Of a stretch of DNA of 64,000 nucleotides, positions 17,324 to 17,480 are shown one piece after another; the first letter of the stretch is position 1; each line of letters opens with the position of its first letter. Position numbers and translations under genes: made by a program. Location of the stretch: contig CAYJXA010000001.1 of assembly GCA_964373955.1 (NCBI GenBank), positions 108,301-172,300 of the forward strand, written 5' to 3'. The stretch comes from an uncultured Methanosarcinales archaeon. Lineage in GTDB: Archaea > Nanobdellota > Nanobdellia > Woesearchaeales > GW2011-AR9. The notes under the pieces are model-generated. The model saw only the letters and a list, made by a program, of their open reading frames with translations, was not told the DNA's origin and did not search any database.

Positions 17324-17480
17324 AGCGAAGCTTTCTGTAAGGAAAGTCACGGAAGGAGTGACTCGACGAGTATCCTACTTGTCTTTGACTAATGATAGTC
17401 GGCAACTTTTGAGTCCCGGAATGTTCCACTGAAACCGGGCGCGTATGAAGTTGTACGCAAGAATTAACCAATGGAACATT
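17324..17480 (+). ncRNA. Copy B of the repeated structured RNA-like element (longer variable insert with an 11-bp perfect inverted repeat)
   Basis: agcgaagctttcTgTaaggaaagtcacggaaggagtgactcgacgag ... ggaacattccgtgatttt. Conserved 5' and 3' blocks shared with 6328..6416. It lies 46 nt after the stop of the 16904 gene. Confidence 0.35.

Follow-up and report, generated by a model that had tools for sequence, protein, structure and literature searches.

The stretch of DNA analysed here, 64,000 nucleotides long and referred to below as the window, harbors two copies of a short repeated element. The copy under study, copy B, lies between the gene for a 128-aa membrane protein (16892-17278, + strand), after which an oligo-T tract ends at the insertion point, and a gene for tRNA-Gly(GCC) (17534-17723, + strand). 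The tRNA gene does begin 54 nt downstream of the end that the original prediction had given for the element, and its TATA box (TTTATTAATAAAT) is found just 3′ of copy B. It carries two introns, one of 51 nt at position 37/38 (17571-17621) and one of 67 nt in the T-loop (17644-17710). Cutting these out in silico leaves 72 nt that ARAGORN calls as tRNA-Gly(GCC), whereas the unspliced gene was missed by both ARAGORN and Rfam on account of the two introns. This is a caution for annotation, since a two-intron tRNA-Gly is invisible to standard tRNA finders. A gene for the tRNA splicing endonuclease is present at 2139-2822 on the minus strand. In a related locus, L012, a LAGLIDADG-type ORF (5191-5883) lies beside the intron-containing tRNA-Gly; the window has none at the corresponding position. 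The membrane protein upstream of copy B had been assigned to a small paralogous family; the window holds one paralogue, 37% identical, at 47410-47736 (within 47206-47742), and no copy of the element follows it.

Several other genes in the window deserve a brief remark. The glutamyl/glutaminyl-tRNA synthetase is apparently split between two adjacent ORFs (22921-23724 and 23749-24624), the first corresponding to positions 2-161 of the catalytic domain and the second to positions 189-310 plus the anticodon-binding domains. A truly split gene, a frameshift and a short intervening sequence would each account for this. Furthermore, an 887-aa ORF has internal repeats of about 45-51 nt (52381-52949), a 3002-aa ORF has repeats spaced at roughly 1.0-2.3 kb (28054-37062), and a 1351-aa ORF is rich in cysteine (6890-10945). 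All three look like large surface proteins.

That the element is present twice was confirmed by a repeat search, in which 6321-6387 pairs with 17317-17383 at 84% identity, and three conserved blocks (26 nt, 19 nt and 19 nt) each occur exactly two times in the 64 kb, against an expectation of 0.00-0.09 from shuffled sequence. The element proposed at 17324-17480 thus is real, but these limits are too narrow, as comparison with empty sites extends copy B to 17304-17486 (+ strand, 183 nt, 5′-CTCAAAAAGTCC ... ATTCCGTGA-3′). Copy A occupies 6307-6412 (+ strand, 106 nt). A BLAST search of related loci with copies A and B identified a third copy at 13825-13975 of L008, whose interior differs from that of the other two. 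The termini of all three copies are identical (5′-CTCAAAAA ... CCGTGA-3′), the intact element measures approximately 150-185 bp, and no ORF was found inside it. Approximately 100 kb of DNA from other relatives contained no copy, and three copies are known in total.

Related loci were retrieved via neighbouring genes, namely Mre11 for site A and YchF for site B, and the protein homologues of both are labelled Nanoarchaeota or Woesearchaeota, which places the organism among the DPANN archaea. At site B, the element is missing from three relatives (L012, L014/L015 and L016), which share 83-88% identity with the window in the YchF GTPase. These relatives keep the membrane-protein gene, the oligo-T tract, the TATA box (TTTATTAATAA) and the tRNA-Gly gene, but from the T tract to CA(A)TAAC they are shorter than the window by approximately 185 nt. 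These empty sites, together with the termini common to copy A and the L008 copy, define the boundaries of copy B. Site A, which is located between convergent genes, is empty in one relative, L008/L009 (Mre11 83% identical), where the genes are separated by 36 nt as compared to 159 nt in the window. Finally, the site in the window that is orthologous to that of the L008 copy, at approximately 11100, is likewise empty and reads ATTTCTTTTTCTAGAAC.

When the element was excised in silico, colinearity was restored at all three sites, and exactly so at one of them: removal of the L008 copy produces the joint ATTTCTTT+TTCTAGAAC, which is identical to the window sequence. These joints fix the termini of the element and show that there is no target-site duplication; no repeat flanks copy A or copy B either. 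The two ends also do not form an inverted repeat with each other, in that 5′ CTCAAAAAG and 3′ CCGTGA are not complementary. The right flanks of the three insertions read TTTT, TTCT and TTTT (TT[TC]T), and the TTTT to the right of copy B (17487-17490, + strand) is target DNA outside of the element. The left flanks, which come from three events only, read TTTCTTT, TTTCTTT and AGAAAAA and reveal no consistent short 5′ target; a consistent flank, A[AG]AA, emerges only if the element is read on the opposite strand. The three presence/absence polymorphisms, the common termini and the third copy at an unrelated site support the earlier suggestion of a small non-autonomous mobile element.

The intact element is predicted to fold, as single-stranded DNA or as RNA, into two long hairpin domains. 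The z-score of the single-stranded DNA fold is −3.56 for copy B and −5.72 for the L008 copy, and that of the RNA fold of copy B is −3.28. As judged from inverted repeats and the fold, domain 1 is a long hairpin at 17304-17413 (+ strand), closed by the stem CTCAAAA/TTTTGAG (17304-17310 with 17407-17413) and continued by a second stem, CCGAC/GTCGG (17316-17320 with 17398-17402), which for the intact element is given as CCGAC(C)/(G)GTCGG. In the L008 copy, the corresponding arms extend over 15 nt (93% complementary) and are thus longer. Domain 2, a near-terminal hairpin at 17417-17483 (+ strand) delimited in the same way, has a perfect stem of 12 bp, in which CGGAATGTTCCA (17417-17428) pairs with TGGAACATTCCG (17472-17483). 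The perfect inverted repeat that had been noted in copy B thus exists, though its length is 12 rather than 11 bp, and the inner GCGTAT/GTACGC stem that it was said to enclose is present at 17441-17446 and 17453-17458. Between copy B and the L008 copy (CGGAATTTTCC/GGAAAATTCCG), the domain 2 stem differs by one compensatory exchange of G-C for T-A. Palindromes hence lie near both termini, with the stems of domain 1 starting at base 1 and that of domain 2 stopping 3 nt before the 3′ end, and the two near-terminal hairpins are dissimilar to each other.

The copies also differ in their interior. Minus-strand BLAST matches show that the L008 copy has the inner segment of domain 1 in the opposite orientation to copies A and B. 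Copy A keeps the 5′ end, a 36-nt unit, and the 3′ arm and end, but has lost domain 1 in its 3′ part, along with the 5′ arm of domain 2; the gap begins at its CCACCGGTC hairpin and extends to the 3′ arm of domain 2. Copy B had originally been viewed as copy A with an extra insert. However, copy A is missing the very region with the 5′ arm of the 3′ hairpin, and the L008 copy retains two repeats similar to CCACCGGTC that could mediate such a deletion. Copy A is hence best read as an internally deleted derivative that arose by repeat-mediated deletion, rather than copy B as having gained an insert. The modularity that had been suspected is real, but it is a property of the DNA, with nested insertions, an inversion and a deletion.

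Nested within domain 1 is a unit of 36 nt, located at 17331-17366 in copy B (+ strand) and at 6335-6370 in copy A, which is the most conserved part of the element. Its general layout is a first hairpin, H1 (CTTTCC-loop-GGAAAG), a second hairpin, H2 (TCAC-GAACGAA-GTGA), and a CTCGA tail; in copy B, it reads CTTTCT-GTAA-GGAAAG for H1 and TCAC-GGAAGGA-GTGA for H2, followed by CTCGA. The unit is precisely missing from the L008 copy, which has GCGAAG|CGAGCA where copies A and B have GCGAAG[36 nt]CGAGCA. Pattern scans of public collections retrieved the unit from four other DPANN contigs in unrelated contexts: it adjoins an intron-containing tRNA-Met in a JGI metagenome contig (L001), lies between a membrane-protein gene and aIF1A in a Nanoarchaeota contig (L003) and immediately upstream of the L11 gene in a Woesearchaeota contig (L006), and is found in a pilin-like ORF in a Nanoarchaeia contig (L007). 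It is also present in L021 and L024. Every collection scan gave one unit match per contig, and a covariance model found no further copies in 240 kb. There is no similarity in the flanks between the unit-bearing contigs, and a resemblance of L003 and L006 past the unit was not upheld. An initial pattern scan of genome contigs gave no match, three scans of viral contigs yielded a single chance match, phage and plasmid collections contained no match, and the pattern matches in L002, L004, L005 and L018 were dismissed as due to chance. A literature search for the sequence string returned nothing relevant.

Two of these loci display further features. In L001 (12690-12905, minus strand), a unit-bearing segment of approximately 170 nt has a direct repeat of 20 nt on either side. 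The repeat, GCTGRG(A)TTATACCCGCATA, is the 5′ end of the adjoining intron-containing tRNA-Met(CAT) gene, as if an insertion or duplication had occurred at that end of the tRNA. In L006 (6690-6797, minus strand), there is a weak match to the archaeal HgcC family RNA, whose 30 bits are below the gathering score of 50 (E = 0.0024).

The pilin-like genes provide a view of the unit in coding DNA. In L007, it lies antisense inside the first codons of the ORF, and across the family it corresponds to an in-frame insertion of 36 nt, or 12 codons, in the n-region of the signal peptide. The homologues fall into two groups, those with the insert (e.g., MRYGKVSGK-SSHFVRDFPLGK-RGQIELTF) and those without (e.g., MKYTKISGK-KAQIELTF), and the insert is missing from many orthologues. 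The 36-nt indel was confirmed at the DNA level, with L007, L021 and L024 being filled and L023 being empty. At the protein level, P0247 shows another exact 12-residue insert within the unit-derived insert, P0251 shows a 33-residue insert at the same spot, and P0242 a partial deletion. Further indels are thus concentrated at this site.

Across the copies, the H1 stem occurs as CTTTCC/GGAAAG, CCTTCC/GGAAGG, CTTCCC/GGGAAG, CTTTCT/GGAAAG (with a U.G wobble) and CTTTTCC/GGGAAAG. In this small sample, 98% of cells are paired and two pairs are changed on both sides, a level of covariation that was reached by only 15 of 500 shuffles. The H1 loop varies in length from 3 to 6 nt and includes the GNRA tetraloops GCAA, GUAA and GCGA, and U.G wobbles are found on the + strand only.

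Taken together, we think that copy B probably is a small non-coding, non-autonomous mobile DNA element that would move in the manner of palindrome-associated transposable elements (PATEs), which are derived from IS200/IS605. We file it as PATE-like because an identical block is found at unrelated sites, the empty sites are clean, and there is neither an end-to-end inverted repeat nor a target duplication, and furthermore because of the near-terminal palindromes, the internally deleted copy and the nested small repeat. By analogy, the element would move as single-stranded DNA by "peel and paste", in which a Y1 transposase provided in trans would recognize the near-terminal hairpins, and insertion would take place beside a short A/T-rich target that is left unduplicated. 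The nested 36-nt unit would represent a second, smaller insertion module, parallel to the small mobile repeats (SMRs) found in haloarchaeal PATEs. A Pfam search of 30 window ORFs revealed no transposase domain, and there was none among the called genes of the related loci. Likewise, neither these ORFs nor the Pfam labels of the related loci included a tnpA- or tnpB-bearing IS that shares ends or palindromes with the element. Domain 1, whose first base already belongs to an internal inverted repeat, is in this respect more MITE- or SMR-like. Copy B lies after the upstream oligo-T terminator region and before the TATA box of tRNA-Gly and leaves both intact; its position probably is neutral, and its location beside tRNA-Gly looks incidental.

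An alternative that we consider unlikely is that the element belongs to a family of small structured non-coding RNA genes, in which the two-hairpin core is functional, the peripheral stems vary, and A and B are paralogous. The original prediction had offered a related idea, a modular RNA with a variable stem, as one of two alternatives. In line with this, copies A and B fold more stably than shuffled sequence, H1 is kept through two compensatory double changes, its GNRA tetraloops and + strand-only U.G wobbles would suit a folded RNA, and the 3′ CGUGAUUUU can pair with AAAGUCACG in both copies. Three DPANN assemblies with one exact match each to a 20-base pattern also recall a housekeeping RNA. 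The wobbles (G.U/G.T) and GNRA loops on the + strand fit an RNA no less well than top-strand single-stranded DNA. However, Rfam, with its RNase P, 5S rRNA, SRP RNA, riboswitch and ribozyme families, returned nothing at gathering thresholds on the window and only noise at E ≤ 10 on 17200-17800, and it had no match to the unit in L001, L003, L006 and L007. Moreover, the orthologous sites in relatives are empty and approximately 100 kb of their DNA holds no copy; the regions upstream of the three copies have no promoter in common, nor does the element carry one; and in the pilin-like genes, the core lies antisense within the coding region. The L008 copy, with the core absent and the inner segment inverted, also counts against a sequence-specific RNA, which would not tolerate inversion. 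The RNA-gene reading thus is disfavored for the whole element, though less so for the 36-nt unit, whose H1 carries GNRA loops and + strand wobbles.

Specific RNA identities fared no better. The sequence AGGAAAGUC, which we take to be reminiscent of CR-I of RNase P, together with a P4-like pairing in the MFE fold of copy A, raised the idea of a minimal RNase P RNA, but this long-range pairing is missing in L001, L003, L006 and L007, and two copies in 64 kb, the absence of an Rfam match and the empty sites in relatives likewise speak against it. The motif CGAAC...GAAGUGA is similar to loop C of 5S rRNA, yet a divergent 5S rRNA is countered by the lack of an Rfam match even at E = 10. A split or permuted tRNA, or a tRNA antisense guide, an idea that came from the repeated tRNA-Met 5′ end in L001, was rejected because there is no such relation between copy B and tRNA-Gly. 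A small peptide gene was discarded since reading frames across the unit differ between loci (hand translation of L003, L006 and L007).

A cis-acting hairpin cassette spread by duplication or recombination, be it a terminator, an insulator, an mRNA stabilizer or a protein-binding DNA site, in our view is quite unlikely. All three copies reside in intergenic A/T-rich DNA beside gene ends or promoters, and they end beside T-runs. Furthermore, the H2 stem with its flanking bases forms the dyad AGTCAC-N7-GTGACT, which is of the type recognized by dimeric DNA-binding proteins. However, relatives without the element at the same sites keep intact oligo-T tracts and TATA boxes, and the sharp identical termini at unrelated loci call for an insertion mechanism. 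A binding site would also be affected by the variation of the H1 loop between 3 and 6 nt, since this would change the spacing of a double-stranded site, and the G.T wobbles argue for a folded single strand. An origin recognition box or a dif site was rejected on similar grounds, given the variable H1 loop, the wobble pairs and the unit within the L007 ORF.

Copies A and B could also be what an integrated plasmid or virus left behind, either as remnant attachment sites (attL and attR) or as scars, or else a dif-like site, but this is very unlikely. Even though they are direct repeats 11 kb apart, copy B adjoins a tRNA gene, and the L001 segment lies between direct repeats of a tRNA 5′ end, the genes between A and B are syntenic with those of relatives that lack the element there (Mre11 followed by the genes for 153-aa and 1340-aa proteins in L008; YchF followed by YdjM in L012, L014 and L016), which led us to reject attL/attR of an 11-kb insert, and there is no integrase among 30 window ORFs (Pfam), no match in phage, plasmid or viral collections, and no duplication of tRNA-Gly sequence.

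Some other classes of repeats were dismissed as well. The differences between A and B are not adenine-specific and no reverse transcriptase lies nearby, which argues against template and variable repeats of a DGR; an integron attC site was rejected because there is no cassette array; and the unit, despite its length of 36 nt, is not a CRISPR repeat, as there was one match per contig, no arrays, and no extra covariance-model copies in the 240 kb.

Our preferred reading remains that of a PATE-like mobile element. Haloarchaea, Sulfolobales and methanogens have well-documented mobile elements that are small and non-autonomous. DPANN genomes are known almost solely from metagenomes, and their mobile elements are largely uncharted. 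We regard the element as a real small mobile insertion whose general kind is known, from a lineage, the DPANN archaea, for which the literature that we searched contained no description of such elements. With its defined ends and three dated insertions, the family can be used for tracing its transposase and for comparing close strains.

The more interesting lead is the 36-nt unit, which is conserved and recurs in unrelated places, including a coding region with a covarying hairpin. We tentatively entertain the possibility that the double hairpin is an insertion module in its own right, common to Nanoarchaeota/Woesearchaeota lineages and far below the size of described archaeal mobile repeats; to our knowledge, no archaeal mobile repeat as small as 36 nt has been described. 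Such a module may have landed within other mobile elements, between genes and, in frame, in the part of a pilin-like gene that encodes the signal peptide, and H1 may then have been kept by compensatory substitutions although the encoded peptide changes. If this were true, there would have to be either a new system dedicated to its mobilisation or selection on the hairpin for a function as nucleic acid.

Among known systems, MITEs resemble the element in being short, non-coding, hairpin-forming and intergenic and in using a transposase in trans, which for our element is inferred, but they differ from it in that it has no terminal inverted repeats across its ends and no target-site duplication. 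The REP and BIME elements of bacteria are mobilised by RAYT transposases, and BIMEs are mosaics of palindromic modules. The 36-nt unit falls in the size range of REPs, and the whole element, like a BIME, is a mosaic of palindromic modules in either orientation. However, there are not hundreds of copies as with REP/BIME elements, but one exact pattern match in each DPANN assembly that has any; in addition, a GTAG motif is lacking, we saw no RAYT gene, and the host is archaeal. Rickettsia palindromic elements can sit in frame within ORFs, and the unit likewise can lie in frame inside an ORF.

The closest parallel is found in Haloquadratum walsbyi, where Dyall-Smith and co-workers described PATEs as non-coding derivatives of IS605-type transposons (PMC3119063). 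These have no ITRs, carry near-terminal palindromes, cause no target duplication and undergo repeat-mediated deletions of the core (PMC3119063). Like them, our element is too short for a transposase gene, has neither an end-to-end inverted repeat nor a target duplication, carries palindromes near its termini, and shows strain- or species-specific insertions with clean empty sites; it also has an internally deleted version, copy A, that fits repeat-mediated deletion, and a small repeat nested inside. The element departs from PATEs in that an IS605-type partner that shares its ends was not found among 30 window ORFs and the related loci, that the 5′ palindrome begins at the first base, and that the host is a DPANN archaeon. 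A fixed target of 4-6 nt abutting one end is expected of PATEs; over our three events, the right flanks are similar (TT[TC]T) and the left flanks vary. The two palindromes are also dissimilar, which sets the element apart from some of the IS605 type. Haloquadratum PATEs are themselves targeted by small mobile repeats, and a 52-bp version of a PATE appears to be mobilised (PMC3119063). These SMRs (SMR-A and SMR-B) are 80-110 bp long and have prominent terminal inverted repeats (PMC3119063). The 36-nt unit resembles SMRs in that it is non-coding, lies inside another mobile element and, in the one direct comparison with an empty site (window copies versus the L008 copy), shows no target duplication. 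Unlike SMRs, it measures 35-40 nt, consists of two adjacent internal hairpins rather than having a terminal inverted repeat, and also occurs in frame within a coding region.
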